Shown piece after piece: positions 2 through 64,000 of a stretch of 64,000 nt of DNA. Positions within the stretch are counted from its first letter, which is position 1. Each line of letters begins with the position of its first letter. The translations under genes were made by a program, and so were the position numbers. The DNA comes from Candidatus Omnitrophota bacterium (GTDB lineage Bacteria; Omnitrophota; Gorgyraeia; Tantalellales; Tantalellaceae), in the NCBI GenBank assembly GCA_049643885.1, contig JBARQV010000020.1, positions 10,670-74,669 of the forward strand. Reading direction: 5' to 3'. The notes below the pieces were generated by a model. The model did not search any database. It saw only the letters and a list, made by a program, of their open reading frames with translations, and was not told the origin of the DNA.

Positions 2-3000
2 GTGAAAGAAGGCCGTGCAGGAGCAGCGAAACAAGCCCAGGAACTTTCCGGTAAATATAAGCACATGGCTGAGACGAACGCTGAATTGGCCCAAACAGAA
101 TTCAAGGCAAAGATATCCGGAGTAGCTACACCAAGGCAAGCCGCTGATATTAAAGTACTTAAGGCGGCGAGATTGAGTTTAGCCAAAGAAATGGGTTGGA
201 CCGGAAAACAGTTACGTACCAGTGGGAGAGTAGCAAGAAGCATGGTAAAAGCTATGATGAGGATGTATACCGTTTCGGGCGGCACATATCAATTGACGAC
301 TGTTCAGGTAAAGGCGCTATCCGCTGCTTTGACGCAGGCAATGAATAACAGCGGGACGCTTGATGTTACAAAAGCGGCCATGGGGATGATAGGATTGTCC
401 TGCGGTGCGGGTAAATCCTTCCCGATCGTTGCCATGAACCTGGCATTTCTCGAGGCAAAGGCAAGTGAGATGGGAGCAAAGGGCATGACCAAAACCCAGA
501 TACAGGCTGCGCTGCAGAAGATGAAGCTTGGTATCGTCACCGATACGGCTACAAACGCGCAGGATTTTCTCCAGAAAAGCGAGATGGACGCCTTGAAGCA
601 ATTCTGTAAGGAGAACGGTATCAATATCACACTTGTCGAGAACGCGGGCCAGATGACCGATGCCGGCGGGCTATTTATATTCAACGCGCATTCACTCATG
701 TCCACTTTCTATGAGAAAGCCGGCGCATTGAAAGGCTTCAGCATGGTCAATGTCGACGAAGCCGAAGCGGTATTCCAGTCGACCAGGTTGAGTTACAGCT
801 CCCTAGTGAATGCCTGGGCTGCAGCGGGAGTTACTACGCAGGCGGCTTGGAAAGCAAAGAACGCGCTGTGGGAAGGATTCGCAAATAGGACCATGGAAGT
901 TTTTAATGTGAAAATGGGCGGGAAGATCACAACAGTATCGCCTCTCCAGCGCTGCGGAGAGACAGGACAAATAAGGTGGAACGCAAAGGCATTCAACACA
1001 GAAGTGAAGGCGTTTCTGAGCACCAAAGCAGGCCGGAGTCTTGCCAGACAGGTCGGCGGCAAACAAATGGCAAAGAGGATGCTTACTGCTTTCGCGAACA
1101 GGGCCACTACGACACTCCTGCAGAGAGTTAATCAGGCGGGAAGCATTAAGATACAATCCGATGCACAGGGAAGATTCGTAAAATATGACTTGCTCGGTGG
1201 AGGCCAAGCCACCATGGCTAATACACAGCTTGGTGACTCGATGTCTGCCATGGCTGTTCTTTTCCGCGCGAAAGCCGGTAAGAGTATAGGAGGAATGGGC
1301 CTCAAGGCAAAAGCCGGAAGCACCTGGGACGCGGAAACCTTCAATGCGTTTAAGACCAGTTCAAAGGGCGGTGTGAGCATATTTGAAGCCCTGAACTTTA
1401 TTGACGCGAACAATGCTTTCGGTTCAAAGAGCGTCAGCATAGGATGGGGCGGAACTATAGAGGGCTGTAGGAATATCCTGGGAGCGAAGGGTGCGGTCCT
1501 TTATGACCTCGGGACGACCGGGTTGGAGGCTATGGGGCTGGTGAGCCTGAGCGATGGGAATTGTACGGGACGACTTGCAAACCGTGCCCTTGATAGGTAT
1601 GAAAGTATCCAGGCCTCGCCTAATGAATTAATGGCCATTGCCGGTGGTGCGCAGGGCCAGTCCGGGGGTGTGTACCGCGCTATTACCGCCGGCGCCAAAG
1701 CCCGAGGCATGAAGGTTGAAATGCAGACACATGGTAATGCTCTTAAGTTCCAGGAAGCCTTTGCCGCGGCAGCTGCAAAGGGACCTGCCGCGCTTAGGGC
1801 ATTTGGCAAGAAGATACATATTGTTGCGGAATGTGTGACTGCCGTTAACCTTTTCAAGACTAACGATGCAGGATTTATGAAGGCAACCGGTCCGAACGGA
1901 CAACAAATTGACATGTTTAACCGCGGCTTATTCCTGACAAATGGTGTGAATACTTCTTCGAACATGCTGCAGCAGGCCGCTCGCGGTAATATCCAGGTGA
2001 CTGATGCAAATGGTAAAACCGCTTTCAGGAGGATGGCAATTGAAATTCACCACTTCATGGATATAAATGATCTTCAGGGGACCGCCGGGCAGATGAGCGA
2101 ATTGAGGACGGCTATGCAGAAAGCCGGCGGCGTAGAAGTAAAAGGCAGTCTTGCAGGGAACAAGGGCAATGCGGGCGCTGAATTTGCAGCCGGTTCCAGG
2201 GGAGCCGTCGATGCTGCCTGGAACATAATGAAAAGCATGAATAACAGGATAGACGTCCGGCAGGCGACAGAGGTCCGCCAGGTCGTAAGGACTTCCGGCA
2301 AGGATATAAGTTTCAGGACGGGAACGGTATCGCAAACAGCGGCCCCGGCGCTGGTCCAGGTTGCCGCGCAGGTCCGGGGGACCTATGATATGGAATGGGA
2401 CACTATGAACACTGAAGACAGGCGCGCGGCGGTTTATGACAGCACTGCTTTTCAATCCCTGGATTCAGTGGAAGCCAGTCTCTTCACGGGTGCGTTCGAG
2501 GCGGATAGTTCACTTTCCTCGCTGAACGAGAATTCGGTCGTAGCCGCGATCGGTGCGGTCAATGATGTCAACGATATGGGAGGAGAGAGGACTGACTCTG
2601 ATAATATGGGGAGATTACTTGACAGAGTAAAGGGTATGGATAGCCTGTCGCAGGGCATGGCTGTCAGCGCGTTCTGCAGCGATATGTCCGTATCCGAATT
2701 CTTCCAGATAGCCGGTGCGCAAAGAGTACTCGGAGGAGAAGCAGGCGTAAAGGAGATAATTAAGTCAGAAGGCCTCGCGGAAGATACAAGTCCTGTTGAG
2801 TTTATTCGCCATGATATTGTTGCCGGCGGCGCTGCAAGGCTGCTTGATGTAGGCCCGGCCCAGTTAAGAGAGATACCGAGCATAAGAAGGGTTGCCAGGG
2901 GACGCGACGCCGACCACAACGCTGCAGCCGCGCTTGGCGCGCGTATGCTCGGTAGAGAAAAGTTAGATAGTGGAAATACCGGTCATATCGCCGCGTTCAC

Positions 3001-6000
3001 AGCCGCAGCGGGTCTCCTGGGCATGTCCAGTTTTGGCGCGACTAATTCTGCCCAGAATTTCTTTACGGGTAAAGCATTGGAGAGAATAAATACGCAGCAT
3101 TCCGGCCAGCTTGACGCGATGTTACGGCAGTTGACAAGCGTGCCGCAGCGCGGCAGGCCTTCAGCTCCGGCCGGCGGGAGTATACAGGAGCTTGTAGGCG
3201 CGATGTCAGATAGCGCGAATATGGGTGTGCGCATGACGGGCGCTTCTTACGGCCCGACGATGACCGGCGAGGTTCTTCTAAGCAAAGCCGCGGAGGTCCA
3301 GGCGACAGGTAATACCGTCAGTGTCCAGGCGCATGGCGTAACCGTCAATGTAGCGGTCGACGCTAGTATTGCCGATGTGGCCGCAGTCCAGACATCGTTC
3401 CAGGCGGCGCTCAGCAGTATGACGTCCCGGCAGATGAGTGCTATAAGTCAGACTCTCCAGGGCAGGCCCATGACGATCATTTCCGCTGCCAAGACCCAGT
3501 CGGCTTTTGAGAATCACGCGCAGGACGGTGTCGTCGTAGTGAACAGCTCGGTGTTCAACAAGACAGCGGACAATCCCGCTTTGAGGGCGGCCCTCCTGCG
3601 GGTAGGGTTCACACACGAGATGCGCCATGAAGCCGGTGTGGGCAACACCGCCGCGGAAGAGATGGCGCTTGCCTTCGGCGACGCCGCCACGTTTGTAAAT
3701 ATGTCCCAGCAGAACCCGGCGCTCATGACATCCATGCTGGCATTGCTGAATGATATAGCGACTCCCGCGAGCTCCTTCGGTATAGCCGTCAGGGCGCTTA
3801 TGAGCAACGACCTTTTAAGCAGTGGCGCGGTAGGCATAACAGCCGAGGTTGTGGACGGCGCGGCAACGCTGAACCTCGAGGGTGTTACAAGTCTTGCGGC
3901 GTTTAACAGTATAGCCCATACAATGGGGCTAATGGGTGCGACCGTAACGGCGCAGGTTCAGTTGGCCGGCATGGCTCAGCCTGTGGTCCTCCAGTCCCAG
4001 ATAAGGGATGGCGTGGCGGATACGTTCGCTACCGGTTTTGTCGCGCAGTCAGGCCAGGTCATAAGTCTTGACGCGGGTGTCAATATCAGCACAGCCGAAC
4101 AGTTCTCTCAAGCGCAGGCGGGCCTGAGCGCGATGTCAACGATAGCCCAGGGTGCGATAATGAATAACGCTGCCGGCTTTGTGTCAGTGGCAAATCAATT
4201 TGCGGCTCTGGGAAGAGGTATTACGGCTGAGGTCCAGGGTGTATTTCTGAGGTCGGCTGTTGAAAATAACGCGGTAACCGGAGTGCAGGCCGCTGCCCTC
4301 AGGACATCCGCAGGCCAGGTCATAAACCTGGCCCAGGTCATGAGGTTGGACATGAATATCGACGGCACCCTTACAAACGCTTCCATGACACTTATGAATG
4401 ATCTCGTCAGCGCTACTTCCGCGATAAGGGACATGACGGTTGTTGACGGTGTAGCCAGATTGAATCTCGTCGATGTCGGCATGCAGGCGTTCAGCGATAT
4501 TGCGGCTACAATGGCGCAGACGGGTATGTCGGTTACGGCTCAGGTCAAACTGGATGCCGTGGATTCGTCAGTTGTCCTCCAGTCGCAGGTCAGGGAAGGG
4601 GTCATAGACAGGACGCTCGTCACCGGACTCGTCACACAGGCTGACCAGGCGATAAACCTCGCGAGGCATATGGATATGAGCATTGTAAGCACTGCCGAGG
4701 GCTTGAGCAGGCTGCAGGCGCTGTCAGATATAACCTCACAGGTGACCAGTAAGGTGAGTGTCGATGACTTTGTCCAGCTGGCGCAGGCATTTGATGCCAG
4801 AGGTCAACAGATCACCGCCGAGACCGCTCAGGGCACCATGCTCCGTTCAGAGATAGCACTGGATAGCACCTTAAGGGTGAACGCTGTCGCGCAGAGGACA
4901 GCCGCCGGCCAGGTCGTCGATCTTGCCGAAAAGATGCTTGTGGCAGTGCAGGAAGCCCGCGCTTACGCTTCTAGTACGGGAATAGATGCGCTCGTAAGCG
5001 CTGCCGGCGCGGTAAGAGGTTCTGTGAATGACGCTCGTTCGTTCAACAAAGTGGCCGCTGATTTCGCGAAGGACGGCATAGCCATAAAGATGGAGGTTGC
5101 CGACGGTGTATCACTCGAATCCAGGGTGACGGATAATGAAGTTACGGGATTACTGGCGACCCGGGCAGGAGAGATAGGCAGGATATCGCTTGAAGTCCGT
5201 CCCGGCGGCATGCTTACCGAAGCCGGTCTGGCCAGGGCCGCTGAAGTGCTTGGCGTTGAAATTGAAATTGCGCCGGTATCGGAAGTCGCCGCGGATATGG
5301 CGGCAAGGGTCATGGACGCCTTCAGATCGGCTCTTACAAGTTCCAAGATAGGCGCCTTGAGGACAGTAATGAACATAACGGCAGGCGCCGCGCAGGCTAC
5401 CGATGCCCTCGCGGGTACTGTAAGGGATTTTGTGGATGCGCTTGGACGCAGGACGAGAGAGATAGACCTGGCAGAGATCATGAAGATCGACCCGGGCCTC
5501 GGCCAGCAGCTGCAGGGCCTCCTTGATGTGGAAGGGGTGGATATAAGCACGCGTCCGGCTAACGTTATGGATATAATCGTGGCTTTGAGGACCGGGAAGA
5601 CCCCGAGCGCGGTGAGCGCGGTGGAACAGGCGCTTTTCACGCTTGACGGTGTGATGATACAGAAAACGGCCGACGGTAAGCTCCTGCTCCAGTTCGCTAA
5701 CGGCGCCGATATGAATGACTTCCAGAACATGACGATGAATTTGAACGCGGCTACACTTGCGCAGATACAGACAGCGCTCGACGCGGGGCTGCTTGACCGC
5801 GTAGCTTCGGGTCAGTTGAACGCGGCCGACAGGCAAGTGATGAACATGATAGGCATGATCCTGGCTGAATGGTCGAGATACTCCGCGCTTGGTTTTAACT
5901 TTGCTCCGGATTCAGCGACGGCCAATATGATAAACAGCATTGTGCAGCAGATGGTAGATACGGGTAACCTCTCTCAATTACTTACCCTTGTGAAGAGCCA

Positions 6001-6910
6001 CGCGCCTGAAGGAGAGAAGACAAGCGCGGCGTCAATGGTCATGAAGGATATTGTGGGTATACCGGAACAGGTTGCGCGCCGTCTTGCGATCGCGGAACAG
6101 AAGGCTCTGGCGAATTTCGTGAAAGAGGTCGTTGAGAAAGCGACGCCGATGCAGCCGGCTCACGTCATCATGCAGACGCTGACCCCGGCGTCCATGTTCG
6201 GGGCCGATGTAGCGTCTGACATGACGATGGCGGAAGCGGCCCTGCAGGCCAATCCGGCGGTACGGGATCTGTCAATGGCTGCAGGGGAAGCCATTTATAA
6301 TAATGACGGAATACTTGAAGACGCGGAAGTGGTCCATATGCAGGCAGTGGATGCCGGGCTACTTGCGACCGAAAAAGACCTGGAAAAGATCGAAAGGATC
6401 GCAAGGTTATATGAGAGCATGAACGTTCACAAAGGCAGTAAGTTCCGCCTGATTATCGTAGGTGATGTTTCAGATACAATTGCCAGGAGGCTGGACTCTA
6501 ATGGTATTAAGCGTCTCGGGAAGAAGGCTGTCGAAGATTCTCCACGCGCAGCCATTAACGACGTGCTTAATCAGCAGAAACTGCAGAGCACACTGACAGC
6601 TGTGATGAAGGGCGACGAGGCCTACGCGGACGCGTTTGCGCGTGAGGTTGACAGTCTCATTATTGTGGATAACATGAACGTCTTCGGCGCGGCGACTGCA
6701 AGTTATATAAGGCATCGCGTTGTGGGGAAAGGCGAGCTCAGTTGTACGGGATTTACGGACGCGGCAAGAGACAAGTTACAGCAGTTGAGAAAGGGAAGCA
6801 ACAGGGCCGCAGGCAGCAACAACTTCAACGTCGATATCAGGGAAGAAGAAGCACGTGAGGAAATGGACGAGTATATACTGTCGGACATGGAAGCCGACGT
6901 CGCCTTCTAA
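2..6910 (+). CDS. C-terminal 2302 aa of a giant protein (5' end outside window). Low-charge Ala/Gly/Thr/Val/Gln/Met-rich, probably fibrous or extracellular; contains two ~197-aa internal repeats
   Basis: ORF open from the window edge to TAA at 6908-6910. Uniform composition, no competing ORF, same strand as and 185 bp upstream of giant gene 2. Confidence 0.85.
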   Translation: MKEGRAGAAKQAQELSGKYKHMAETNAELAQTEFKAKISGVATPRQAADIKVLKAARLSLAKEMGWTGKQLRTSGRVARSMVKAMMRMYTVSGGTYQLTTVQVKALSAALTQAMNNSGTLDVTKAAMGMIGLSCGAGKSFPIVAMNLAFLEAKASEMGAKGMTKTQIQAALQKMKLGIVTDTATNAQDFLQKSEMDALKQFCKENGINITLVENAGQMTDAGGLFIFNAHSLMSTFYEKAGALKGFSMVNVDEAEAVFQSTRLSYSSLVNAWAAAGVTTQAAWKAKNALWEGFANRTMEVFNVKMGGKITTVSPLQRCGETGQIRWNAKAFNTEVKAFLSTKAGRSLARQVGGKQMAKRMLTAFANRATTTLLQRVNQAGSIKIQSDAQGRFVKYDLLGGGQATMANTQLGDSMSAMAVLFRAKAGKSIGGMGLKAKAGSTWDAETFNAFKTSSKGGVSIFEALNFIDANNAFGSKSVSIGWGGTIEGCRNILGAKGAVLYDLGTTGLEAMGLVSLSDGNCTGRLANRALDRYESIQASPNELMAIAGGAQGQSGGVYRAITAGAKARGMKVEMQTHGNALKFQEAFAAAAAKGPAALRAFGKKIHIVAECVTAVNLFKTNDAGFMKATGPNGQQIDMFNRGLFLTNGVNTSSNMLQQAARGNIQVTDANGKTAFRRMAIEIHHFMDINDLQGTAGQMSELRTAMQKAGGVEVKGSLAGNKGNAGAEFAAGSRGAVDAAWNIMKSMNNRIDVRQATEVRQVVRTSGKDISFRTGTVSQTAAPALVQVAAQVRGTYDMEWDTMNTEDRRAAVYDSTAFQSLDSVEASLFTGAFEADSSLSSLNENSVVAAIGAVNDVNDMGGERTDSDNMGRLLDRVKGMDSLSQGMAVSAFCSDMSVSEFFQIAGAQRVLGGEAGVKEIIKSEGLAEDTSPVEFIRHDIVAGGAARLLDVGPAQLREIPSIRRVARGRDADHNAAAALGARMLGREKLDSGNTGHIAAFTAAAGLLGMSSFGATNSAQNFFTGKALERINTQHSGQLDAMLRQLTSVPQRGRPSAPAGGSIQELVGAMSDSANMGVRMTGASYGPTMTGEVLLSKAAEVQATGNTVSVQAHGVTVNVAVDASIADVAAVQTSFQAALSSMTSRQMSAISQTLQGRPMTIISAAKTQSAFENHAQDGVVVVNSSVFNKTADNPALRAALLRVGFTHEMRHEAGVGNTAAEEMALAFGDAATFVNMSQQNPALMTSMLALLNDIATPASSFGIAVRALMSNDLLSSGAVGITAEVVDGAATLNLEGVTSLAAFNSIAHTMGLMGATVTAQVQLAGMAQPVVLQSQIRDGVADTFATGFVAQSGQVISLDAGVNISTAEQFSQAQAGLSAMSTIAQGAIMNNAAGFVSVANQFAALGRGITAEVQGVFLRSAVENNAVTGVQAAALRTSAGQVINLAQVMRLDMNIDGTLTNASMTLMNDLVSATSAIRDMTVVDGVARLNLVDVGMQAFSDIAATMAQTGMSVTAQVKLDAVDSSVVLQSQVREGVIDRTLVTGLVTQADQAINLARHMDMSIVSTAEGLSRLQALSDITSQVTSKVSVDDFVQLAQAFDARGQQITAETAQGTMLRSEIALDSTLRVNAVAQRTAAGQVVDLAEKMLVAVQEARAYASSTGIDALVSAAGAVRGSVNDARSFNKVAADFAKDGIAIKMEVADGVSLESRVTDNEVTGLLATRAGEIGRISLEVRPGGMLTEAGLARAAEVLGVEIEIAPVSEVAADMAARVMDAFRSALTSSKIGALRTVMNITAGAAQATDALAGTVRDFVDALGRRTREIDLAEIMKIDPGLGQQLQGLLDVEGVDISTRPANVMDIIVALRTGKTPSAVSAVEQALFTLDGVMIQKTADGKLLLQFANGADMNDFQNMTMNLNAATLAQIQTALDAGLLDRVASGQLNAADRQVMNMIGMILAEWSRYSALGFNFAPDSATANMINSIVQQMVDTGNLSQLLTLVKSHAPEGEKTSAASMVMKDIVGIPEQVARRLAIAEQKALANFVKEVVEKATPMQPAHVIMQTLTPASMFGADVASDMTMAEAALQANPAVRDLSMAAGEAIYNNDGILEDAEVVHMQAVDAGLLATEKDLEKIERIARLYESMNVHKGSKFRLIIVGDVSDTIARRLDSNGIKRLGKKAVEDSPRAAINDVLNQQKLQSTLTAVMKGDEAYADAFAREVDSLIIVDNMNVFGAATASYIRHRVVGKGELSCTGFTDAARDKLQQLRKGSNRAAGSNNFNVDIREEEAREEMDEYILSDMEADVAF
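3614..3637 (+). other. HEMRHEAG: HEXXHxxG zincin-like motif in gene 1. Could be a metalloprotease active site or a chance match
   Basis: In-frame cac gag atg cgc cat gaa gcc ggt; Glu residues follow 14-15 aa downstream (AAEEMA). Confidence 0.2.
3849..5030 (+). repeat. Two divergent tandem ~591-bp (197-aa) protein-level repeats inside gene 1. Both start VVDG(A/V)(A/R)(T/L)LNL and contain TVTAQVQL / SVTAQVKL and VVLQSQ(I/V)R(D/E)GV
   Basis: Translated segments align at period 591 nt (anchors gcgaccgtaacgg at 3938 vs tcggttacggct at 4529). About 40% aa identity, so not a nucleotide-level repeat. Confidence 0.6.
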
Positions 6911-6970
6911 TGGAGGGAGGTGTTAGGGTTTAAAAAATTTAGCTTTTTCTCAGGTCTAGTTTTCACCTTG

Positions 6971-7011
6971 TGATATACTCTATACTAGGAACATAATATT
7001 ATGTATAGAGT
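6971..7011 (+). promoter_or_regulatory. Extended -10 (TGaTATACT, 6971-6979) overlapping a palindromic element: ACTCTATAC (6977-6985) / GTATAGAGT (7003-7011) arms around a perfect 14-nt palindrome ACATAATATTATGT (6991-7004)
   Basis: Read directly from sequence. No good -35 hexamer. Sits 85-125 bp upstream of the gene 2 ATG. Confidence 0.3.
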
Positions 7012-7052
7012 TACAACAAGCGAGTGGTAAAAGGAGGGATTATTTTTTTGGC

Positions 7053-7094
7053 ATGTTAATAAATACATTTAATAAGTACAGGCAAAGGTGCTAA
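7053..7094 (+). other. Candidate 13-codon leader uORF (MLINTFNKYRQRC*). Its TAA (7092-7094) ends 1 nt before the giant-gene ATG at 7096
   Basis: The only canonical SD in the intergenic region (AAGGAGG, 7032-7037) sits 15 nt upstream of this ATG, not of the giant gene ATG. The giant gene itself has only a weak AAAGGTG. Confidence 0.25.
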
Positions 7095-7095
7095 A

Positions 7096-10000
7096 ATGAA
7101 GTACTTATCTCAAAACGCCACAGAACGCCGAGACCCCATGGGCGGTAAAGAGATGCTGGCAAACAAGGCATTCAGGAGCCCGAAAGCCAGGCCATGGATG
7201 AAGACTATCTCGTGTGTCATCATCCTTACATTTCTCTTCCAACAGGTGGTCTTTGGCCAGGAAATAACCCCTGCGGCACCAGCCGAAAAACCCATTGTAG
7301 TTAACGGCCGTATCGATCTCAGGCAGGTCTCTCTTCCGCGTGATATCGCTATCACTAAAGAAGTGAGCATGGCCAAAAGCGAAGAGATTATCATCGATAT
7401 AAAGGACGCCCACGACAATTTCGGCGCCCAGGAGTCCATAGTCGCGGCGCTTGAAAACCTCCTTATAAATTACGACGTCAAGTTCATCGGGGTAGAAGGC
7501 TCTGAAGGGTTGATCGATATGGGCCTGATCTCTTCTTTTCCCGACGAGGATATCAAAAAAGAAACCGCCGAATACCTTATGCGCCAGGGTAAGATATCGG
7601 CCGGTGAATTCTTCGCGGCGACCTCAAAGACGCCCATAATGCTCTACGGTATAGAAGATACCGATCTTTACCTCAGGAATTACACTGATTTTATAGCCCT
7701 CCATGAAAAGATGAAAAGTAACCTCAAGTATGTGGACGGCCTGAGAAGGGCTCTGTACGCGCTTGAAGACCACGTGTTTTCGGAAGAACTCAAAACTCTT
7801 AACAGGAGCTCGATCCTCAGTAAAAACGGGAACAACAGGTTCACCAGGCGGTGGGAGTATATCGAGAACCTCGGCAAGAAATACGGCGTCAGCATAGAAG
7901 AGTATGAAAATATCAGGGCCTTGATACACACGATGGTGATAGAGGACTCGATAGATTACAAGGCCGTCAACGCGCAGAGGGAAAAGCTCCTGGACATACT
8001 GACCAAACGGCTCCCGAGGGACCAGCTCGAGGAGCTCATCCTCAAGAGCCTGAACTTCAAACTCGGCAAAATATCGAAGAGCCAGTTCTATACTCACCTC
8101 TTGTTCCTTGCTAAGGGGGAGGAACTTGACAGGGAAACCTATGACAGCATCGAGGTCTTCTGCGATTTTGTGAACACGTATGAGTCTATAGACATCGGCA
8201 CCCTCATGGACGAGATCGATGAATATGAATGCAAGATAAAGGATAAGCTTTTCACAGGCGAAGAGGACCGGGAGCTCACGCATCTTTTAAAGAACGTGGA
8301 GATACTCCATAATCTTTACCAGGTCCGGCTTACCAGCGGACAGTTGAAGTATTTCCGGGAGAACAAGGAAGATTTCAGCTCCGAGATATTCCTGGATTTT
8401 ATAAAGGATACGTACCAGAAATACGGCATGCGCGTCCCGGAAAACCTCCGCAGGAACACGTATAAACTCTTCGAGATGCTTCCCCAGGGTATAGACTTTT
8501 ACGAAGCCGCCACCAAAAGGAACCGCGCTATGGTCGACAACACCATAAAGCAGATGCGGGAAAATGGTGTTACGGTGGGAGCGATAGTGACCGGGGGGTT
8601 CCATACGAGGGGCATATCCGAGGTGCTTAAGTCCGATGAGGTCTCTTACCTGATACTCCTGCCCCGGTTCAACGCTCGGAACAACAAACGCCCCTACATA
8701 ACCGTCCTGACGAACAAAGCCGCTGAGTATAAGCATTATGTGGAATCGGGCAGATACCTTGCCGCGTCCTCTTACTTTTCGATGATGCAGGGTATTTTGG
8801 AAGGCTCCGGCCAGGAGGATACGGCCCGCAAGACAAGACTTGAAGCCCTGGCCGTCATGATAGGCCTGTACAGCCAGGGAAGGAGGGAGAGAGGCACGTT
8901 CAGCCAGAGGATACTGAACAATATGAAAGAAAGGCTCATGGATCAGTTCAAGGCGGGCCAGGAGCAGAAGCTGAAAGCGGGACAGATCACCCAGGGACAA
9001 TACGAAAGCCTGGTAAATGAGATGGAGACGCTCCTGGATAATACGTTCGTGACCTGGAAAGGAGAGGTTCCCCAGGTATTTATTAAGTCCACGGAAGGCA
9101 ATTTCATGTATGCCGTTGAAGCGGAGAAGGTGGAAGGAGAGACAAAACCCGTTGTTATGCTCGCCGCGTATGATGGCATTTCGGGTAAAAAGATCGAGAG
9201 CGTGAAACTGGAGAGCCAGATAATGGAGGCGGAGCTTGCCGCGGGAGAAGCAATAGACATGGGCAAGGAACTCTTAGCCAGAGTCCAGAAACTGAAGAAC
9301 GAGCAGTTTTTAAAGAGGTTTGGCATTGAGGCGAAAGCCCAGCTGGAAATAGAGATACTCAAAGGCAAGCTGGCCGATGCCGAAGACCTTCAAGAATGGC
9401 TCGAAACTAAGCTGACGAAAATGGCGAACGCCATGCGTGTCGATAAAGGACAGGTAGAGGCCGAAGCCCAGAAGATAATAAGTAGCCGTGTAGAAGAACT
9501 GACTGCCACCCTTGCCCGGGCAAGAGAAGGGGAAGTGTCCCCAGCCAAGCGTGTTGGCGAAGCGGTAGCGACAAGAAAAGCCGCTGATGATCTAGAGAAG
9601 GAAGTCAGGGCAAGCAAAGAATTTCAAGATCTCGTAGCTAAAGCAGAAGAGCAGAAACCCTCGGATATGATGGGGTCTATCAAAGTTGTAAAGCACGATT
9701 TCAAAGGTACTGGAGTCGCCGCGTTCAACTACCGTGAAGGGGAAAGGACTGGCATCCTCAAAGAAGGCAGGACATTAGTTGTAGCGCTCAACCAAAGCTA
9801 TATAGATGAAGCGGTTAAAATGCTCGAAGCGGCAGGGATAACGGAGATCACCGTGACCGTTGTCGAAAGGAGGCGGAAGAAAGAAGTCAAGATGTCCGTG
9901 AGGGAAGCGCTTGAACAGGAACTTATAGATCATGAGAAAAAAGAGGATCACTGGGTAGCAAAGCGTAAGGTCGGTGAAAGGCGGGGGCACATTCTGGCAA

Positions 10001-13000
10001 GCGCGGAAACTGCTCTAACATGGAGAGCAAAAGAGTTGGGCGGCCTTTCTTTGTTCCATTACATAGAACTTAAAATGATGGGATTTGAACAGCTTGAGGC
10101 CCTGGCAAGAGAGGACAGGACTGACCAGCATAAGATACTCAAAAGTGCGAAGATGGATCAAGCCATAGGTTATGAAGAAAATATGCAAAAGGCCGCGAGA
10201 GAAGAGGCCGAGCGCAAGATGTCCCCAGAGGTCAAGAAAAAGAGAGAAGACGCCGCGGTCCTAGCCAAAAAAGACGCTGTCGATAAAGTCAGGGGCGTGT
10301 TTGTCAGTATACACACGCAGGTACAGGCCGAACTGAGCAAAGTCCAGGGCCTGATCGATTCAGGCAAGCTTGATGATGCAGCGAGCCTTATGAAAAAGAT
10401 ATATTCAAGGCTTGAAGATCAAATAAAAGCGGCAACGGGTAAAGTAGGAAAAACATCTCCGGAGATGCTCAATGAAAAGGCTGTCCAGGAAGCCCTGGAA
10501 ATGGCTGAGCTAGCTCCTAATGCCCTGAATAGGGAACTTTTAAGATCGCTTATGAACCGCGATGCGGGAGCGTTTCTAACGGCCTTGGGGAACGCTCAGA
10601 AGGGCCTTGACCTGGACGGAAGGCCTATAAAAACCACAGCGGATGCGGAAAGGGCAATGCAGGAGGCGAAGAGAAGACAGGAGGCCGCATATGGTTCCTG
10701 GCTTGCAGCTGGATATGAAGACCTGGCCTTTCAGTATATGAGACGCGCGGGGGATAGGTATAAAGACAGGGTCATGATAGAAAGTCTTGGCCGTGAGATT
10801 AAGATCAATACAGGCTTCTTATTATTTGATCTCATCGATGCCGTCAACGGTTACCGGCAAGGAAAGGTCAATGCCAATGTTATTATGCTTTTGACCCAGC
10901 TTTATCAGGTATCCCTGGATGCTAATGCTGAGGCTAAGGGAACTAAGGCGGCCAAATGGGCCGATCATCTGATGAGCGGATTAAAAAATGCGCAGGAGAG
11001 GGCGAAAGACCCTAAAGACCCGCTTCTGGAACAACGTAAGGATAAGGTCAGGAATCTTGATATTGGTAGTTTTATGGGTGAGATCGGCGGGATCATAAAA
11101 GTAGCGCGTGGCGAAAAAGCTAAGGCAGTCGAAAAAGCCCCAGCCGCCCCGGCGGCAGCAGCTGAAATCGAAACAACAAGTTCTGAATTCGCGAGCAATG
11201 TGATGAAAGCGGTCCAGGCCAGACTCGATGCTATTGTGGGTAAAGGCAAAATAGCTGCTAAAGTTCGGGAATACATCGCCCGTAATTATGTAAAAGTTCT
11301 GGGCAGGAGATACAAAGCTATAAGCGCAGACAGAATAGTCCCTGCGATAAATATTTTAATGAGAAATGAAGCGGAAGTTATAAAAATGCTCGAGGAGGCG
11401 CAGACCAGGGTGCTTGAAGCGCTCCACGAGGAAGCTGTGAAGTTTTATGATGAAAAGATCGCGATCCACGTTTCCAAAGCGAAAACTGCCGCTGACTACC
11501 TGCAGGAAGAAGGCTTATACAGTCAGCTGAGAACAAAGATGCAAGCCGCGATAGAAGTGCGTAAAAAAGGCGCCGAAGCAGGTGTTATTCTACGCGAATC
11601 CGGGATCATTGAAAAAATGGATAGCCTGGAGACAGATGGAATTAAAATGGCGGATGATGGCATAACAACGGCGCAAAAACGTCGTGCGAAATTAGCCGAG
11701 GCAGAAGCAAAGAAAAAAGTCGCCCCTGCCGCACCGGTCGCAGCTAAGGCAGAGGCGGATAGACGAGCTGCCGAAGCTAAGGCAGAGGCAGATAGAAAAG
11801 CCGCTGAAGCCAAAGCTAAGGCAGAGGCAGATAGACGAGCTGTTGAAGCAAAGGCAGAGGCAGATAGACAGGCCGCTGAAGCCAAGGCAGAGGCAGATAG
11901 AAAAGCCGCTGAAGCTAAGGCAGAGGCAGATAGAAAAGCCGCAGAAGCCGAAGCTAAGGCAGAGGCGGATAGACGAGCTGCCGAAGCTAAGGCAGAGGCA
12001 GATAGAAAAGCCGCTGAAGCAAAGGCAGAGGCAGACAGAAGAGCCGCTGAAGCCAAGACAGAGGCAGAGAGACGAGCCGAAGCAGAGGCCGAGGCAAGGA
12101 GAGAAGCCGAAGATGCCGAGGCAAGAAGGGAAGCCGAAGATGCCGAGGCAAGGAGGGAAGCCGAAGATGCCGAGGCAAGGAGAGACGCCGCAGAGGCCGC
12201 GGCCAGAGCCAGGGCTGAGGACGACGAGTGGGTAGCGGCTGAGCAGGAGATAAAGGATCTAAAGGCAAGGATCGAAGAGACCAGGGCTGATGCCAAAGCT
12301 GCGCGGGAGAAGGCTGAACAGCTGCAGGCAGACACCGGAGTGGCCATTTCCCCGGAAATGCGGGATGCTGCACGTGATGCTAAAGCGCGCCTGGACGCTG
12401 TCCAGAAAGATCTGGATGAAGCAGAAGCGGCAAGAGAAGAGGCCGCCAAAGAAGTAGACGATTTAAAGGAAAAAGCAGACGACCTGGCCAAAAAGGCCGA
12501 AGAAGCCGAAAAAGCCCCCGCCACCCCGGCGGCTGTAGTAGGAAAAGCGATCAGTCCCGAAGTACAGAAGGTGTTAGATGAGGGCGGTGTCGAGAGGTTT
12601 ATAGAAAAGAGGTTAGGAATTATTAGTCGTAATGAGACCGCTAATGCTATTCTTATGCTGGAAGAATTTTGTAACAGTCTTATCGAAAAAGGCATCGATC
12701 CGGCATCAGTTTTTGACGCCAAACAATTGTCAGATTTTAAAGCAAATATGGCTAACGGAATAGCACTTTTTAGCCAAATTGCGACTAATAAACAAATGAA
12801 AGCAACAGATTTTGCTAAGCAACTTGATGCTCTGATTATTGATAAGACATCTCCAATTGCCTCATCCTATTATGAACTTTTTGCAAAGTACATAAACATG
12901 GCGGAGCCAACATCGGCAGGTAGGGAAGCACGAGCTGGTAAAGTAAAAGAAGCGTTTGCTATGGCTATGGCTGGATTTATCAGAAGCGGTCTTGTGAATG

Positions 13001-16000
13001 CTATTGATGCTATTGAAAAAGGCCCTGCCGCTGAAGCCGCTCCCGCGGTAAGCGTCGCCGACCTCAAGGCAGAACTGGAAAAAGCAAAAAAAGAACTGGC
13101 CGCCGCCGAGAAAAAACTCACCGAGCAGCAAGGTAAAAAGTCCGAGAAGGAAGACGCAAGGAGCCAGGCCGCTGCTGCCGTGGCCGAGGCAGAAGCCAAG
13201 CTTGAAAAAGCCCTGGCGCAAGCGCCGGCGGAAGAAATGCCCGAGCAGGCCCGGGAGTTAAGGAAAAGGGCGGAAGGAGCGGAGGCTCAAGCGGGAAATT
13301 TACAGGAAAAGCTTAATGCCGCCATGGCAAGAGTCGAGAGAATGGCTCAGGCGAGAGCCGATCGAGCAGCGACTTATGAAGGCGCGCGTGAAGCCGCTCG
13401 CGAATCAGCGAGCAGGGACGCGAAACGCGAAGCAGAAAGAGAAAAACGCAAAGAAGCACGAGCGACAGCTGAAAAGCGTCTGGAAGAGAAAGAAGAAGCG
13501 GACAGGGAAGTTGAAAATCTTTCCGAAGAATTCAAAAATGCAAAGCAGAAACTTATCGAGGCGGAGTGGACAGAGATGGTGGCCGAGAAAAAAGCGGAAG
13601 ACACGGAATTTAAAGACGCATTGGAACAGGCCGCCGCCAGGGCGGAAAAGCCAAAAACGGATAAAGAAGTCAAAGTCGCCGAAGCCGTTAATGTCTTTGA
13701 TGAAATTGAATCCAGCCAGAAAGAGGCGGAACAAGCGCAGAGGGAAGAAAAAGACGCGCAGGAACGCTTAGATCAATGGAAAAACATTGCGTCAGACGTT
13801 AAGGCGCGGGTCGAGATATCGGAAGAACTTCAAAAGGATGAAGCTAAGCGGCTGGAAGCGGACAGCGCGCGTGAAAAAATGAAAGAAGCACAGGATAGAG
13901 TCGCAAGCCGCGAAGCTGGTATTAAATCGGTGGAAGATGCTGCCGATCTTATGGAAATCGACGTAAAGAAGCAGGCTGAGAAGGTCGCAGACGCGGACAT
14001 AAAAAGACTCCAGGGCGAACTTGCTTTTGCTGACGAAGAATTAGAAAATTCGGAAGAAGCACTTAAAAAAGTCAGGCAGCGTCTGCAATCCGAGGACGAA
14101 ATAGAAAAAGACGCAAAAGGAAGGCTGACCTCCGATGCTGCCGCAAAAGTGTTGCGTCTCGAGGATGCACTAGCCAGGAAAAAAGCAGAAATAAACAATA
14201 AAGTAGCTCTCGGTCTTGGTGAATGGGGCAAACTGGGATTGAATACCGGAGATCCTAAGTTAAATGCTGAAAGAAAGGCAGCGAAAGCGAAAGCCGAAGC
14301 CGCACGAGATGCCCTGGAGGAGGCGTTGGAGAAGGCACTTGGCAAGGCGAGAGAAGAGGTGAAAAAAGAATACAGAAAGGAAATCGAAACGCTTACCGAA
14401 GAAATAGGATCCAGAAAGGAAGAAAAGATTTCACTGGCAGCCGATATAAAAGGACTGCAGGAAGGAAAAAAAGACGGGAGTATTGCTGAAAAAGCGCTTG
14501 ATAAGCGCGACAAAGATGACCCAGACGGGCGGACTTTTAGGGAACAGATAGAAATGCAAAGAAGACAGGCGGAGTTAGATAGGAAGGACCTGGAAGCGGA
14601 GAAAAATAAACTCGAGGAAGCGGAAGAAGCATATTATAAAGTAGTCGATGGAATTGAGGTTGAGGTCGATGAGGAAATAGGCAGGCTCAGCATAAGACAG
14701 GCGAATGAAAAATTGGCGGAAGCGGAAGAATCGGCGCGCCTCGCAAGGGAAAAAAGAGAAGGGCTTGATAAGCATTTACAGGAAGTTACCGAAAAGGCGG
14801 CAGCAGCGGCTGTGGCAGCCGGTCTTCAAATTGTCGGCGGAAGATTGGTGTCTCAGGAACTTATAAAGGTAAGAAGGCAATATGAAATAGCGCAGAAAAT
14901 AAAGGCAAGGCGAGAAGGAAGAGTCTCGGAACTTGAAAAGAAACTCGCGGAAGCCGAAAAAGCGTCCCGCGAAGCTGAAGCGGAAATTGCCAAAGCAGAA
15001 GAAGCCGCTCCTGAAGAAAGAGCCCCTCCTGAAGCCAAAGAAGCAGAAGCCCCTCCTGAAGCCAAAGAAGAAGCCCCTCCTGAAGTCAAAGAAGAAGCCC
15101 CTGCCCCTGAAGACGCTACTGCCCGTGCCCGTGCCAGGATAGATAAAATACTGGCTGAAAGCACCAGGGCGGAAGCCATAAGCCTTCTTATCGTTCTTTC
15201 GAGAAGCGATGACGCTATCGAGGCGAAGCTCGCCCGGGAAGCCCTCGGCAATCTTCTTGAAGGCAAAGACAAGCTATCGGGCGATGTCAATAACCTTTTG
15301 ACTACGAGTGAAGGCAGGGAGGAGCTGCTGGTAATATACAACCGCCTTCGCGGTCAAACCCTTGACCCTGAAATATCAGCGGAAGAGCTTGCAAAGGTAC
15401 AGGAGTCCATAAAAATAATCGAAGCGATCCTTTGGTCCGCTTTACTGAAAACCGCAGATCCTGCTGTCACCGAAGGCGCGATTGATGTAAGCCGCCGTCA
15501 TATAGAAGCGGTGAGCGCATTACTCCAATCAAGAATAAAAAGGTTAGGAGCTGAACTTGATGATCTTCTCGCAATGGGAGATCAAAAGAATCCGATAGAC
15601 CTTCTCAGGCAGATAAGTGAGGCCAGGAGGATTGAAAAAGAGCTCAAGGCATGTGAAACCGCCATTAAGGATATAAACGATCGCAGGATCAGTCTCATGT
15701 CGGATACCCAGGTCCAGCTCAGAGATGAAGACGGGAAATTCATATTAGAGGATGTGTATAAAAAGATCGATGAGCGTGAGATCGAACTGAAACTCGCAAA
15801 AGACAAACTGACACGACTCAAGTCCAGGAACAGCTATTTTCTAATGACCATCAAATGGGGCTCGAAAGAGACAAAGAAAACGCTTGAGGATAAGAAACCG
15901 CTGGAGGCCGAAGGCCCGGACGGGAGGACATATTATGTCAATGCCTCGACAGGCCAGGCGGATAGATACAGCCAGGAAATAGTAGATGAGGCGTCCAAGC

Positions 16001-19000
16001 TTCGCGACGAAGTTTTGGGCATGAGAGAGATCGCCAAAGCCGTTGTAAAAAAGATGGCCTGGTGGAGGTGGGGCTCATTGGTAGCCTTGGTAACCGGAAA
16101 GAAAGCAAAGATCCGGAATGAGCTGAAGGACAGGCTGCAGGAATGGGCGCTACTATTGATGGAACTGCTTCCGAAAGAACAAGCGGATAGATTCAAGGAT
16201 GAACTGAAAATAATAGGCGAATACAACGAAAAAGAAAAGACGTTCACGATTCATGAAGGTTTCGATTTCAAAAATGCCGTCGATATTATAGATTATCTGG
16301 CCAAGGTATCTATGGTAACCGTCGGCATGAAGACCGAAGAGAGAACGGAAGAAGGAGTGACGAGAAAATTCTATTCATTCGATGATACGGCCGTTTCGCT
16401 GGGAACCGTGGACAAGGTATCGAAAGAAGTCGGTTCAGTCATGCATAAACTTAACCAGATACTGAATCCCGAACCAGTTTCCGATGAAGTCGATAAAGTC
16501 AGCGATGAACAAAAGAAGAAGGCTCAAGAAAAGGCCACTAAAGGGTTCAGCGACCTTCTTGTCAGGATCGACGAGGCATTTGGCGGCAGGCTCGATGCTG
16601 CCAAAAAGCAGAACCTTGTGGATGCAAAGAAGCTTATCGGTGAAATACTTGAAGAGGTAGAGAAGAAAGTAAGCCGCTCGGGCGTAATAATGACAAAGAC
16701 CCTCCAGCTCATCAAACTTTTAGATAATGTTGTTTACGGAAATTCCATTGGCAAAATAAAGGAATTTCTTGAGGTGCAGCTCGGAGTCGACAAGATCATC
16801 GAAGAGAAGGACATCGATGACATTATGAGAGGGCTCGGCGTAGATGATAAGGCGGAAATAGACCAGTGCGTAAAACACGTCCTTGAAAAAGTGGACAACA
16901 CAAAGAGAAGAGAAAGGCTTGCCGAATACATTGTAAAGTTCATGCTCACCGGACATATTAAACCGGAAAAGATGGAGTTTTTTAACGTGAGCCCGGCAGA
17001 ACGTCAAGGTCTTATAGACGAAATAAGTGTAGGCATCGAGTTGAGTGAAATGATCCGCGAGAGAAAGGAGGAGATCGCTGAAGAGCTGAAAAAGAGGAAA
17101 CAGCGTTTTTCCGACCCGAATAACAAGGATAACGAGCTTGTATACGAGTTCGTTGCCCTGTACCAGATGTCCGCTCTGCTTATGAAGGGCGAGTCGCCTT
17201 TCATCGAGCAGGTCCTGACGGGTCTTTTCATGGCCGACAGCTTTTTTGTGGATATGGCTACCGGAGCGGGGAAAACGCTTTCTTTTCCTCTGGCGAACAT
17301 GCTGACCAGGTGCAATTCGGACGGCGGGAAGCATCCCGAGGGGCTCAAGAGCATGCATCTCGTCACGCACGGTTATTATACCGAGAGGGATTTCAGGGAA
17401 ACACATTTCATTTACAAGATGATGGGATATAAAGTCGCGTATCTTACTGACGAAGACAGGGAACTTGAAGCGGCGCACAAGTCCCTGGGCGATAACGATG
17501 TCGTTATAACTTCCTATTCAGCCCTTAGTTTCCTGTGCCTGGAAGCGGGCAAGATGGACAATCCCAAGAGCAAAGACTGGTTCGAGCTCCTGCAAAAGAC
17601 AAGGCTTACCTTTGACGAATGCGATGTCGCGCCGAGACTTGCCGATTTCATAACCGCGGCGATGCAGAACAAGTTGAGTTTGAAAGAATACATGAAGTTA
17701 CACGTGCTTTTCAAGACCGCCGAAAAACTGCATGAAAAAGGAGGAATAAGCGCCATATACTCCCTGTTCGAAGATAATATCGTGGGCGTCCTGGATAAGC
17801 AGGACAGGGCAAATCTTGATAAGCTTCGGAAGATGCTGGGGTTTGAAGAAGAGCCGGACCAGGTGGAGATAAACGATAAAGGGAACATCGTAATAGAAGG
17901 TAAGGAATATACGAAAAAACAGCTCAAAAAAGCCAAACAAATAGCCGTGCAGGGCTCCAAGTTTCTTGTTAAGCATTCGGATCAAAAGGGTTTTGTTTTC
18001 ACCAGGATGGAATACACCGCCCCGGTGGATCTCGACCCGCGAAAGGTTAAAAAGCGCATGGAGGATACCGGTAAGACCGAAGAGGAAGTAGAGGAAGAGC
18101 TCCGGAAAGAAGCCCTCGGTGCCAGCGGGGCGAAGATCGACCTTGTCTCGAGGAGCGCGTACGGGAACGAAAGCACCAAAGATATGGTGGCCGGGATAAT
18201 GCGCAGTATCACGTTCGGCCTGACCAGTACCCTCGGTAAGGAAGTCATAGAGGATACACCGACATGGCAGGAGTTCCTGGATGTCGTCAAGGTCCTGTAT
18301 GTAGACGAGGAAAACGTCGATTACAGGCTCAAGTACCAGGAAAAGGACGAAGTGCCCGCTATTTCGGTAAGGGAAGTCGACGGTGAAGCGGTTGTGTTCA
18401 AAGGAGAACAGATCGTCGAACCCGCTTTTAACGTGGAACGCCGCGCGGACGGTTCGGTCCGTATCGGGGATGAGACGGCGTCATATGTCATCAGCGATCA
18501 GTTTTTCAAACAAAGAAAGACCGATGATGAAAGGGTCATCTTTCTCGGTGGTAAACGGTACAGGGTCTCAAAAGGCAAGAAAGGCGGATACGAGCTCCAG
18601 GAAGTCGCTATGGAGATAGTCCTTCTTGATGAACAGACAAAGAGGGAACAGGGAAAGCAGAGGAAGGATACGTTCCACACGCTTTATGAGATGAAACACC
18701 ACCTGAAGAGAGACAGGCCGGATACGCCGGAGATAAGGGGCGATAACAAGAGTTCTGACCAGTGGAATATCGCTAACGTTGTCGATAAGGCGCATTCACT
18801 CGGTGGCGCCAGCGGATCGGTCAAGGACGCGGCAAGGGTGATGCTTGGTTTCTTCGGGAAGAAATGTAAACCCAGGATAAAGAAACTGCCCCCGCCTATC
18901 GCCAAAAAGGGAGCGCATAGACAGGGCATTTTCGTGCCGAGTGACAAAAGATTGTGGCAGGTAACGCTTAACAGGATAAAGCAGATATACACGCTTTCCC

Positions 19001-36274: not shown

Positions 36275-36434
36275 TATATAGTAATTAGACGATAAAAAAG
36301 GCAGTTAGGGTTATTTATCGTCGGGAAAAACGACTTGGCAAAGAAGACTTGGCAGCAGCTTGGTAAATGACTTGGCAGACTTGGCGAAAAAGACTTGGCG
36401 AACAAAAACTTGGCAAAGAGGCTTGGCGAAAAAT

Positions 36435-64000
<27,566 letters not shown>

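Follow-up and report, generated by a model that had tools for sequence, protein, structure and literature searches.

Three very long genes fill the locus

The giant proteins of Candidatus Omnitrophota are a recognised phenomenon with an unsolved function, and a 64-kb stretch of DNA from a metagenome scaffold (the window, in what follows) raises the question of what the three very long genes that fill it encode and what their products may do. We consider it probable that they form a chromosomal cluster for giant membrane-anchored proteins of the kind typical of this phylum, the host cell being an uncultured bacterium. Three ORFs on the plus strand occupy positions 2-6910 (gene 1), 7096-35367 (gene 2) and 36435 to past 64000 (gene 3), and cover 98% of the window (62.7 of 64 kb, with gene 3 counted from the ATG at 36435); the frames, edges and coverage were exactly those of the initial annotation. 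The corresponding stop-free stretches are 2-6907 in frame 2 (2,302 codons, running off the 5' edge), 7063-35364 in frame 1, where the ATG at 7096 opens a protein of 9,423 aa, and 36309-63998 in frame 3 (9,230 codons, running off the 3' edge). Since ORFs in the remaining frames and on the opposite strand of the window do not go beyond 435 aa, these three lie far beyond chance. The approximately 1.2 kb of non-coding DNA that had been noted corresponds to gaps of 185 nt and 1,067 nt, the latter containing a 363-nt gene on the minus strand, and no Rfam family matched anywhere in the window. The source scaffold, ZINK19-1_SAMN08473120_METAG-scaffold_15 of ENA ERZ23498717, measures 87,509 bp, its base 10,388 being the first of the window, and extends the window by 10.4 kb upstream, where gene 1 starts, and by 13.1 kb downstream, where gene 3 ends after a further ~3.6 kaa.

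Sequence searches of Pfam, NCBIfam and PDB with the whole proteins returned almost nothing, and it was the division into 950-aa tiles that brought SecA_DEAD above threshold; transmembrane (TM) helices were called by simple hydropathy only. The giant-gene architecture had been attributed to Candidatus Omnitrophota, and this is borne out by the fact that every homolog found belongs to that phylum. The homologs of the N-terminal module described below and all 28 related loci in GTDB come from Omnitrophota MAGs, Omnitrophus magneticus, Tantalella remota and Makaraimicrobium thalassicum among them, and a 100% identical protein fragment (P0001) is annotated as Candidatus Omnitrophota. As to a viral origin, IMG/VR contained no relative of the module.

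Gene 2 belongs to a conserved family with a SecA-like motor

Gene 2 (7096-35367, plus strand) is complete. Its upstream ATG is backed by the PGAP protein P0001 (100% identity, full coverage), and its product is colinear, over almost its entire length, with P0020, a protein of 7,055 aa from another genome, and also colinear with P0021 (5,332 aa). At the level of sequence, these alignments show gene 2 to be an ortholog of a conserved Omnitrophota family of 5-9 kaa, whose members present, in this order, a basic tail and anchor helix, the N-module, a charged spacer of variable length, a SecA-type ATPase, TM clusters, a TPR scaffold and a C-terminal domain. The N-terminal hydrophobic helix (aa 35-53, 7198-7254), a signal or an anchor, follows the basic tail, has a Kyte-Doolittle value of 1.76, is flanked by four K/R residues on its N side and one on its C side, and bears an F-L-F-Q-Q..F-x-Q pattern that is conserved in homologs. 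The A/E/K/R-rich charged spacer (aa ~600-3050, 8893-16245) is likely a coiled coil or a single alpha-helix; its match to the coiled coil of QmcA was weak, and it carries tandem repeats of 33 nt and 27 nt at 11670-12218 and is missing or much shorter in orthologs (aa 610-788 of P0020). Beyond the ATPase come a central TM cluster of two to three helices (aa 5527-5579, 23674-23832, hydropathy up to 2.37) and a helical region of about 2.9 kaa with scattered TPRs (aa ~5384-8252, 23245-31851), in which several TPR families scored above gathering threshold in tiles and which is colinear with aa 2945-6791 of P0020. A second TM cluster of about three helices (aa 8844-8928, 33625-33879, hydropathy 1.9-2.2) has a visible counterpart in P0020 and P0024. 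The conserved C-terminal domain that closes the protein (aa 8940-9423, 33913-35364) had no Pfam match and was aligned in part with the same two proteins, up to aa 9129 and 9192 of gene 2, respectively.

The putative motor itself (aa ~3316-4200, 17041-19695) matched Pfam PF07517 SecA_DEAD with an E value of 6.8e-12 (45.7 bits for a gathering score of 24.6), and gave a weak match to P-loop_SecA (E 0.013). When a family alignment was compared by hhalign with four true SecA proteins, the probability was 99.8% (E 4.8e-28, 541 columns), the match spanning SecA residues ~51-609. Motif I (DMATGAGKT, with TGAGKT at 3389) and motif II (FDECD at 3507) are kept in six family members; they are followed by GGASGS at 3903, motif V (GRATNV at 4040) and motif VI (GRNMRAGDTG at 4180), and motifs I, II, V and VI are conserved across the family. 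A search of 1.84 billion representatives yielded no more than 15 relatives. Thus, as far as the sequence can show, this region is a divergent two-lobe SecA-type ATPase with all its catalytic motifs intact. Like canonical SecA, it has motifs I, II, V and VI plus GxxGT/S in the correct order; unlike it, the motor is embedded within a 9.4-kaa protein, carries an insert of ~400 aa at the site of the preprotein cross-linking domain, lacks the wing/scaffold domain (PF07516) and has diverged extremely in sequence. Neither PF01043 nor PF07516 was matched, although the SecA proteins used as controls (P0030-P0033) gave both. In the in-window parts of genes 1 and 3, nothing significant was found with HMMs of the gene-2 family or of true SecA.

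The topology of this protein is not straightforward. According to the positive-inside rule its N terminus would lie inside and, therefore, the N-module outside. Since hydropathy revealed no credible TM helix from aa 54 to ~5030, the ATPase would be outside too, which is at odds with an ATP-driven role. This conflict means that the anchor is reversed, that helices were missed or that the motor does not work as an ATPase.

Gene 1 is the upstream companion of gene 2

The window contains the 3' 6.9 kb of gene 1 (2-6910, plus strand; 2,302 aa), a larger gene that starts upstream and whose product is rich in A, G, S, T and V and low in charge. This part had no match in Pfam, NCBIfam or PDB. Low-complexity, coiled-coil, repeat, TM and helical-repeat segments had been ascribed to all three genes, and it is for gene 1 that the description fails, its in-window part having no credible TM helix by hydropathy and no helical-repeat match. 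It is homologous (22-26% identity) to giant ORFs located directly upstream of gene-2 orthologs in four related loci (L014, L020, L032 and L033), and its family occupies that position in at least 10 other genomes. No terminator separates genes 1 and 2.

Three features could be distinguished. The first is a candidate divergent P-loop NTPase (aa ~120-500, 359-1501) with the motifs G-A-G-K-S (aa 135-139), V-D-E-A-E (aa 251-255) and G-W-G-G-T (aa ~480), which four gene-1 orthologs retain and whose spacing matches that of the gene-2 motor; the hhalign comparison of this region with SecA or with the gene-2 family was not significant (E ~0.1). The second is an internal duplication (aa 1306-1477 versus 1502-1673, 3917-5020; E 6e-21 by phmmer on tiles). 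The third is an acidic C-terminal tail (6842-6907) ending in DMEADVAF-COOH, whose pattern h-E-A-[DE]-h-A-[FY]-COOH is kept in the upstream giant ORFs of nine loci (L014, L018, L020, L023, L025, L027, L028, L030 and L031).

Proposed membrane insertion and the adhesion hypothesis

On the basis of domain content, we propose that a few TM clusters would insert the giant proteins in the cytoplasmic membrane, and that the SecA-like motor of gene 2 would hydrolyse ATP at the cytoplasmic face. The motor could then drive the insertion or translocation of parts of its own giant polypeptide, or of a partner, which is the role that others have put forward for domains of this kind. In the envelope of a cell that depends on a host, the coiled-coil, TPR, HEAT and mTERF-like solenoids of the locus (the last two in gene 3, see below) would act as extended scaffolds that bind proteins or polyanions.

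A different view is that the giants are surface adhesins or cell-wall-degrading proteins for attachment to prey or host. We regard this as unlikely, even though it is the subject of a published hypothesis on Omnitrophota giant proteins (of the Archaeovorin and Dockerin types), an extracellular location is predicted for the HEAT and TPR repeats of Archaeovorins, the proteins studied here begin with a signal-like helix followed by a conserved module, and the basic histone-H1-like and mTERF-like segment of gene 3 could bind anionic surface polymers. Against it stands the content of the proteins: in ~21 kaa, searched whole and in 950-aa tiles, there was no lectin, dockerin, TSP3, Ig, cadherin, CBM, GH, GT or peptidase domain, and in composition the proteins are charged and helical instead of beta-rich. 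Moreover, the motif-complete ATPase and the N-module would, by hydropathy, lie on the same side of the membrane, and the related loci are flanked by Bat-operon or RND-efflux genes (BatD/TPR-SH3 or TolC-HlyD-AcrB), with no type II secretion genes. The role in prey adhesion evoked by the initial annotation thus finds no support in genes 1-3, where adhesin, lectin, dockerin, CAZyme and peptidase domains are all lacking.

Genes 2 and 3 share an Omnitrophota-specific N-terminal module

We favour membrane-anchored scaffolds served by a SecA-like motor, and the element that links genes 2 and 3 within such a scheme is their N terminus. Their paralogy at this end, proposed earlier, is real and limited to the anchor and the N-module: aa 34-562 of gene 2 and 46-574 of gene 3 are 35% identical (E 9e-102), and nothing else is common to both. 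In gene 2 the module comprises ~490 residues (aa ~75-565, 7318-8790, delimited by homolog alignments) with the motifs IKDxHDNxGAQESI, VEGSEG, ISAGEF, TGGFHT and RPYIT.LTN, and it was found in Omnitrophota only. One of the related loci (L026) provides a second case of a tandem N-module giant gene. The AF2 model of the gene-2 module has a mean pLDDT of 65, with a confident helical insert and a poor alpha/beta core.

The module had also been called TraB-like, a label that no test supported. It might be read as a metal-dependent hydrolase of the TraB/Tiki/ChaN type that processes the giant proteins, and we take the likeness to be one of motifs only, that is, D-x-H-D-N...Q after a strand, E-G-S-E-G on another strand and G-G-F-H-T at the C-terminal end, separated by a long helical insert. 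Such a hydrolase seems doubtful to us. None of the 17 module members matched the TraB, PrgY or GumN-Tiki families of Pfam at E<=5, a profile search of PDB was empty at E<=10, and no known family was recovered by either route.

Gene 3 carries other helical scaffolds behind the same module

Gene 3 (36435-64000, plus strand) is represented in the window by its 5' 27.6 kb (9,188 aa). As called on the source scaffold, it encodes 12,789 aa from a start 72 codons downstream of the ATG at 36435; the upstream ATG is backed by a homology to gene 2 that spans the TM helix. Only one closer relative was found (46% identity), on a short metagenome contig (L035). The anchor helix (aa 45-63) and the paralogous module (aa ~75-575) occupy 36567-38159 and were recognised by homology to gene 2 and by hydropathy. 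They are followed by a K/A/P-rich basic tract resembling histone H1 (aa 1040-1182, 39552-39980; pI 10.1), with repeats at the DNA level, and by an array of eight units of ~142 aa (aa 1183-2335, 39981-43439) that is net basic (pI 8.9). Further downstream lies a HEAT/alphaRep-like repeat region (aa ~7082-8770, 57678-62744; HEAT_2, E 5e-37), which matched alphaRep proteins of PDB with an E value of 2e-42 and is interspersed with hydrophobic helices that are TM candidates (aa 8066-8084 and 8390-8408), and then a TM pair (aa 9037-9078, 63543-63668, hydropathy 1.7-2.5). The alignments hence show that gene 3 reuses only the anchor and the N-module, with what appear to be other helical scaffolds behind them: the H1-like tract, the mTERF-like solenoid and the HEAT repeats.

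The eight-unit array is confidently modelled as an mTERF-type helical repeat fold, and the left-handed three-helix mTERF solenoid was its best structural match in two independent searches. It shares this left-handed three-helix repeat solenoid with MTERF1, MTERF3 and MTERF4, but is bacterial and placed inside a giant membrane protein. It also differs from the mTERF family in having ~32 motifs arranged as eight 142-aa super-repeats, and the global superposition is poor (TM-score ~0.3). In the tiles covering the array there was no match to Pfam PF02536 (mTERF) at E<=0.01.

A further possibility, to which we give little credence, is that gene 3 encodes a membrane-tethered nucleic-acid-binding scaffold whose H1-like tract and ~32-motif solenoid bind DNA or RNA of the own nucleoid or of the host. 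The same small likelihood attaches to a joint reading of the locus, in which genes 1-3 would constitute a conserved multi-giant module with a His/Asp/Glu N-domain, paired motors and a nucleic-acid-binding gene-3 track. Its three features, which we found described in no paper, are that the phylum-specific N-terminal domain with the His/Asp/Glu motif would mark the whole family of giant paralogs, that genes 1 and 2 would each have their own SecA-derived motor, and that a basic track of ~1,300 aa in gene 3 would bind nucleic acid and make it a membrane-tethered DNA/RNA-handling giant of a host-dependent bacterium. Within this reading, the acidic, aromatic-ended tail of gene 1 may dock on the TPRs of gene 2, by analogy with the clamp between EEVD-type peptides and TPRs.

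Intergenic elements and integrity of the assembly

The spacer between genes 2 and 3 contains several elements. Gene 2 is followed by an intrinsic terminator, a G+C-rich hairpin and inverted repeat preceding T8 (35423-35471, plus strand), and two sigma-70-like matches upstream of gene 3 (TTGACA-18-TATGAT and TTGACT-17-TATCAT, 36069-36274, plus strand), recognised as consensus matches only, both carry an extended TG. The sequence shows in this way a predicted strong terminator at the end of gene 2 and promoter-like sites proper to gene 3. Over the start of gene 3 there is a cluster of ACTTGGCR/CTTGGC repeats (36333-36500, plus strand; TRF periods 14 and 23): seven of the ten exact sites of the window fall within 115 nt, for 3.15 expected per whole window. 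These repeats were not found upstream of gene-2-type genes elsewhere.

Between terminator and promoter-like sites, on the minus strand, lies a stem-enclosed cassette (35539-35976) in which two inverted repeats of 33 nt, 94% complementary, flank a gene for a 120-aa four-helix-bundle protein (35567-35929). The presence of an IVS-type cassette had been correctly anticipated, as the protein matched PF05635 (23S_rRNA_IVP) with an E value of 5e-21 and 75.3 bits (gathering score 33.8) and the repeats enclose the ORF. The arrangement, a 120-aa four-helix-bundle ORF within long inverted repeats, is that of 23S rRNA IVS proteins, but the cassette is in the spacer between giant genes and not within a 23S rRNA gene. 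No homolog of the cassette gene was present in the 28 related loci. A role of the PF05635 gene in a DGR was considered and rejected, the window having neither a template/variable-repeat pair nor a reverse transcriptase.

Five independent Logan assemblies from other runs were 100% identical to positions 25567-36833 (11.3 kb). All Logan contigs end at the same base, 36833, and no repeated k-mer in the window accounts for this break.

That faulty assembly or pseudogene decay produced the giant ORFs, as their internal repeats and the shared contig break might suggest, is extremely improbable and already largely refuted: ORFs of 9.4 kaa and >9.2 kaa run unbroken where other frames reach at most 435 aa, the independent assemblies agree completely over 11.3 kb, orthologs from other genomes are colinear over thousands of residues, and the repeats have diverged to 60-90% identity and are small next to the length of the genes.

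Relation to known Omnitrophota giants

Giant proteins of Omnitrophota with many TM helices and a divergent SecA_DEAD domain that lacks the wing/scaffold domain have been described, and their self-export has been proposed (West-Roberts et al., bioRxiv 10.1101/2023.11.21.568195). A cluster with SecA_DEAD (PF07517) architecture and a class of tandem-repeat scaffolds (HEAT/TPR) are also known, and 94% of complete Omnitrophota genomes have a protein of at least 10 kaa (Nielsen & Lui, bioRxiv 10.64898/2026.06.07.730766). The former authors call giant what exceeds 30,000 aa and the latter call long what has at least 10,000 aa; none of our genes reaches 30 kaa, gene 2 (9,423 aa) is just below 10 kaa and gene 3 (12,789 aa) passes the 10-kaa bar only.

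The proteins studied here resemble those of both preprints in phylum, in their great length, in having a few TM clusters (by hydropathy, two to four internal ones in each of genes 2 and 3, besides the N-terminal hydrophobic helix) and HEAT and TPR scaffolds, in a SecA-like NBD1 plus NBD2 with no wing/scaffold, and in that most of their sequence has no Pfam match. They differ in that genes 2 and 3 are smaller (9.4 and ~12.8 kaa) than the >30-kaa giants, in the lack of a C39 or S8 peptidase near the N terminus, and in that no type II secretion genes were seen in the flanks of related loci. Searched whole and in 950-aa tiles, they also lack the GT, GH, methyltransferase, peptidase and NUDIX domains of the Archaeovorin type, with which they have HEAT/TPR alone in common, and, unlike the Dockerin type, they gave no match to PF00404 or PF18884. 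The locus is, therefore, a further example of the documented giant proteins and no new category. Neither preprint makes mention of the N-module, of its tandem paralogs, of the synteny of genes 1 and 2 or of the mTERF-like array.

This locus, whose products are relatively small (9-13 kaa) and lend themselves to alignment between genomes, offers tractable handles on such proteins, namely a motif-complete SecA-like ATPase, a phylum-restricted N-module common to paralogs and a modelled mTERF-like array. The existence of a subfamily without any of the adhesion or glycan-degrading domains calls for caution in extending prey adhesion or cell-wall digestion to all giant proteins of the Omnitrophota.

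Results

As the initial annotation had proposed, three giant same-strand ORFs fill the window. The plus-strand frames are stop-free over 2-6907 (gene 1; 2,302 codons, open at the 5' edge), 7063-35364 (gene 2; first ATG at 7096, giving 9,423 aa) and 36309-63998 (gene 3; open at the 3' edge), and the longest ORF in the remaining frames of either strand spans 435 aa. Taking ATG 36435 as the gene 3 start, coding sequence takes up 98% of the window, with non-coding gaps of 185 nt and 1,067 nt. GC and AT skews were positive in all 2-kb bins, and the coding strand is purine-rich throughout, which agrees with the Glu/Ala/Lys/Arg-rich products. The minus-strand 120-aa protein at 35567-35929 placed the locus on ENA scaffold ZINK19-1_SAMN08473120_METAG-scaffold_15 (87,509 bp), where the gene calls give products of 12,789 aa for gene 3 and 9,353 aa for gene 2. 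These calls start at window positions 7306 (gene 2) and 36651 (gene 3), 70-72 codons 3' of the ATGs used here, and thus leave out the N-terminal hydrophobic helix, so that the database versions of both giant proteins have no membrane anchor. Both upstream ATGs are supported by the gene 2/gene 3 alignment, which starts within the hydrophobic helix, and that of gene 2 also by the NCBI PGAP protein P0001, which spans the first 620 residues at 100% identity. The automatic ENA starts are too far downstream.

Gene 2 is colinear over nearly its full length with two orthologs, P0020 (7,055 aa) and P0021 (5,332 aa). Its product begins with a basic tail, then a hydrophobic helix (aa 35-53), followed by a strongly conserved N-terminal domain (N-module, aa ~75-565) in which His, Asp and Glu motifs are invariant, and by an Ala/Glu/Lys/Arg-rich spacer (aa ~600-3050) that contains 33-nt tandem repeats and ranges from just a few hundred up to ~1,500 residues in the orthologs. 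Next come a SecA-like motor (aa ~3316-4200), scattered TPR repeats (aa ~5384-8252), hydrophobic clusters (aa 5527-5579 and 8844-8928) and a conserved domain at the C terminus. Support for the motor is good: when the protein was scanned as tiles, PF07517 (SecA_DEAD) reached 45.7 bits, above its gathering score of 24.6, and a profile of seven family members matched four true SecA proteins with a probability of 99.8% (E 4.8e-28, 541 columns). Motifs I, II, V and VI and GxxGS are all present and conserved. The cross-linking and wing/scaffold domains were not detected by the same scan that found both in true SecA controls, and the family is very narrow (15 matches in 1.84 billion representatives). 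The motor is the divergent SecA_DEAD domain known from giant Omnitrophota proteins (West-Roberts et al., bioRxiv 10.1101/2023.11.21.568195), which forms one architecture cluster in Nielsen & Lui (bioRxiv 10.64898/2026.06.07.730766).

Related loci are flanked by genes of the Bat operon or of RND efflux, type II secretion genes being absent there. In other Omnitrophota genomes, BatD and TPR/SH3 (BatE-like) genes or a TolC-HlyD-AcrB efflux operon are directly followed by a gene-2-type giant gene (L008, 971-3534; L015, 7359-9664; L019, 7268-9495; L013, 3643-9614) and, since these 5' genes differ, the upstream context is not fixed. Short DNA repeats within or just 5' of gene-2-type gene starts in L012 (2030-2230) and L017 (225-280), GGGGACAGTCC in six copies and AACTCCCGGAGTTT in four, suggest that such genes are prone to repeats in their leaders or N-terminal tails.

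The paralogy noted earlier between genes 2 and 3 was confirmed (35% identity, E 9e-102) and is limited to the anchor helix plus N-module. Gene 3 then encodes a histone-H1-like Lys/Ala/Pro tract (39552-39980, plus strand; aa 1040-1182, pI 10.1), an array of eight mTERF-like units of ~142 aa (aa 1183-2335, pI 8.9), a region with more internal repeats, HEAT/alphaRep-like repeats (aa ~7082-8770) and several hydrophobic helices; no SecA-like domain was found in its in-window part. The H1-like tract directly precedes the array, and the two are the only large stretches with a net basic charge in a protein that is otherwise acidic. In L026 the ORF 5' of the gene-2 ortholog starts with a further N-module copy, and tandem N-module paralogs thus recur in other genomes. 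In some N-module proteins of other Omnitrophota (P0035, P0036) kinase, glycosyltransferase-2 or GNAT domains stand shortly after the module, which therefore also heads enzyme-bearing long proteins.

Window positions 25567-36833 were 100% identical in five Logan assemblies from other sequencing runs. All five independent contigs (L002-L006) end at base 36833, 9 nt past the only part of the two N-modules that is conserved at the nucleotide level (7378-7443 vs 36759-36824, 71% identity). These ends are not explained by a repeated k-mer within the window, and strain variation in gene 3 is a possible cause.

Over its 2,302 in-window aa, gene 1 matched nothing in Pfam, NCBIfam or the PDB and showed no credible TM helix. 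It is homologous to giant ORFs that end just 5' of gene-2 orthologs in L014, L020, L032 and L033. An upstream same-strand giant ORF was found in at least 10 related loci, 9 of them sharing the acidic, aromatic-terminated tail of gene 1, so that the gene 1/gene 2 pair represents a conserved syntenic unit. This tail (6842-6907, plus strand), ...LEA[DE]LA[YF]-COOH, ends the upstream ORFs in L014, L018, L020, L023, L025, L027, L028, L030 and L031; it is reminiscent of the C-terminal peptide ligands of TPR clamps, and TPRs are abundant in gene 2. Gene 1 conserves G-x-G-K-[ST], [VI]-D-E-x-E and G-x-x-G-T motifs with the spacing of the gene 2 motor, its profile match to SecA being not significant.

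No terminator was found between genes 1 and 2. The order 3' of gene 2 is a G+C-rich hairpin with T8, a PF05635 cassette, two promoter-like sites and an ACTTGGCR cluster. The cassette (35539-35976, minus strand, 438 bp) is a four-helix-bundle ORF within 33-nt inverted repeats (94% complementary) that looks like the rRNA-IVS type, yet its position is intergenic; 28 related loci lack it, and neither template/variable repeats nor a reverse transcriptase of a DGR occur in the window. The dense ACTTGGCR/CTTGGC cluster (36333-36500, plus strand, period about 14/23 nt) runs across the gene 3 start codon, with 7 of the window's 10 exact sites within 115 nt, and may act as a leader or operator, or encode a variable N-terminal tail. 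Were translation to begin at an upstream TTG, the repeats would read KTWQ/KTWR. Rfam gave no match within the window.

Discussion

Wherever N-module homologs carry a label it is Candidatus Omnitrophota, Omnitrophus magneticus among them. The 28 loci retrieved from GTDB (one genome per species) all belong to Omnitrophota MAGs or to genomes binned as 'uncultured Planctomycetia', and IMG/VR yielded no N-module relative. The lineage first guessed from sequence was thus correct.

Pfam scans of the giant proteins detected none of the domains that characterise adhesion or glycan degradation and, as the Bat-operon or RND-efflux flanks of related loci hold no type II secretion genes either, the prey-adhesion reading has no specific support here. 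What we observe is the domain order, its conservation and intact ATPase motifs. From these, the giant proteins would be membrane-anchored, their solenoids may act as scaffolds, and the gene 2 motor may have the ATP-driven insertion or export role that West-Roberts et al. proposed for the SecA_DEAD motor. A real inconsistency remains, in that charge bias would put the gene 2 N-module outside the cytoplasm and no TM helix lies between it and the ATPase; similar implausible localisations were noted by West-Roberts et al.

Among complete Omnitrophota genomes, 94% encode one or more proteins of at least 10 kaa, the median being two per genome (Nielsen & Lui), and TM-helix-bearing SecA_DEAD, HEAT and TPR architectures have already been catalogued (West-Roberts et al.; Nielsen & Lui). 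The conserved N-module family, the gene 1/gene 2 synteny with its tail motif, the tandem N-module paralogs and the mTERF-like array are absent from both papers, and represent incremental additions to known biology.
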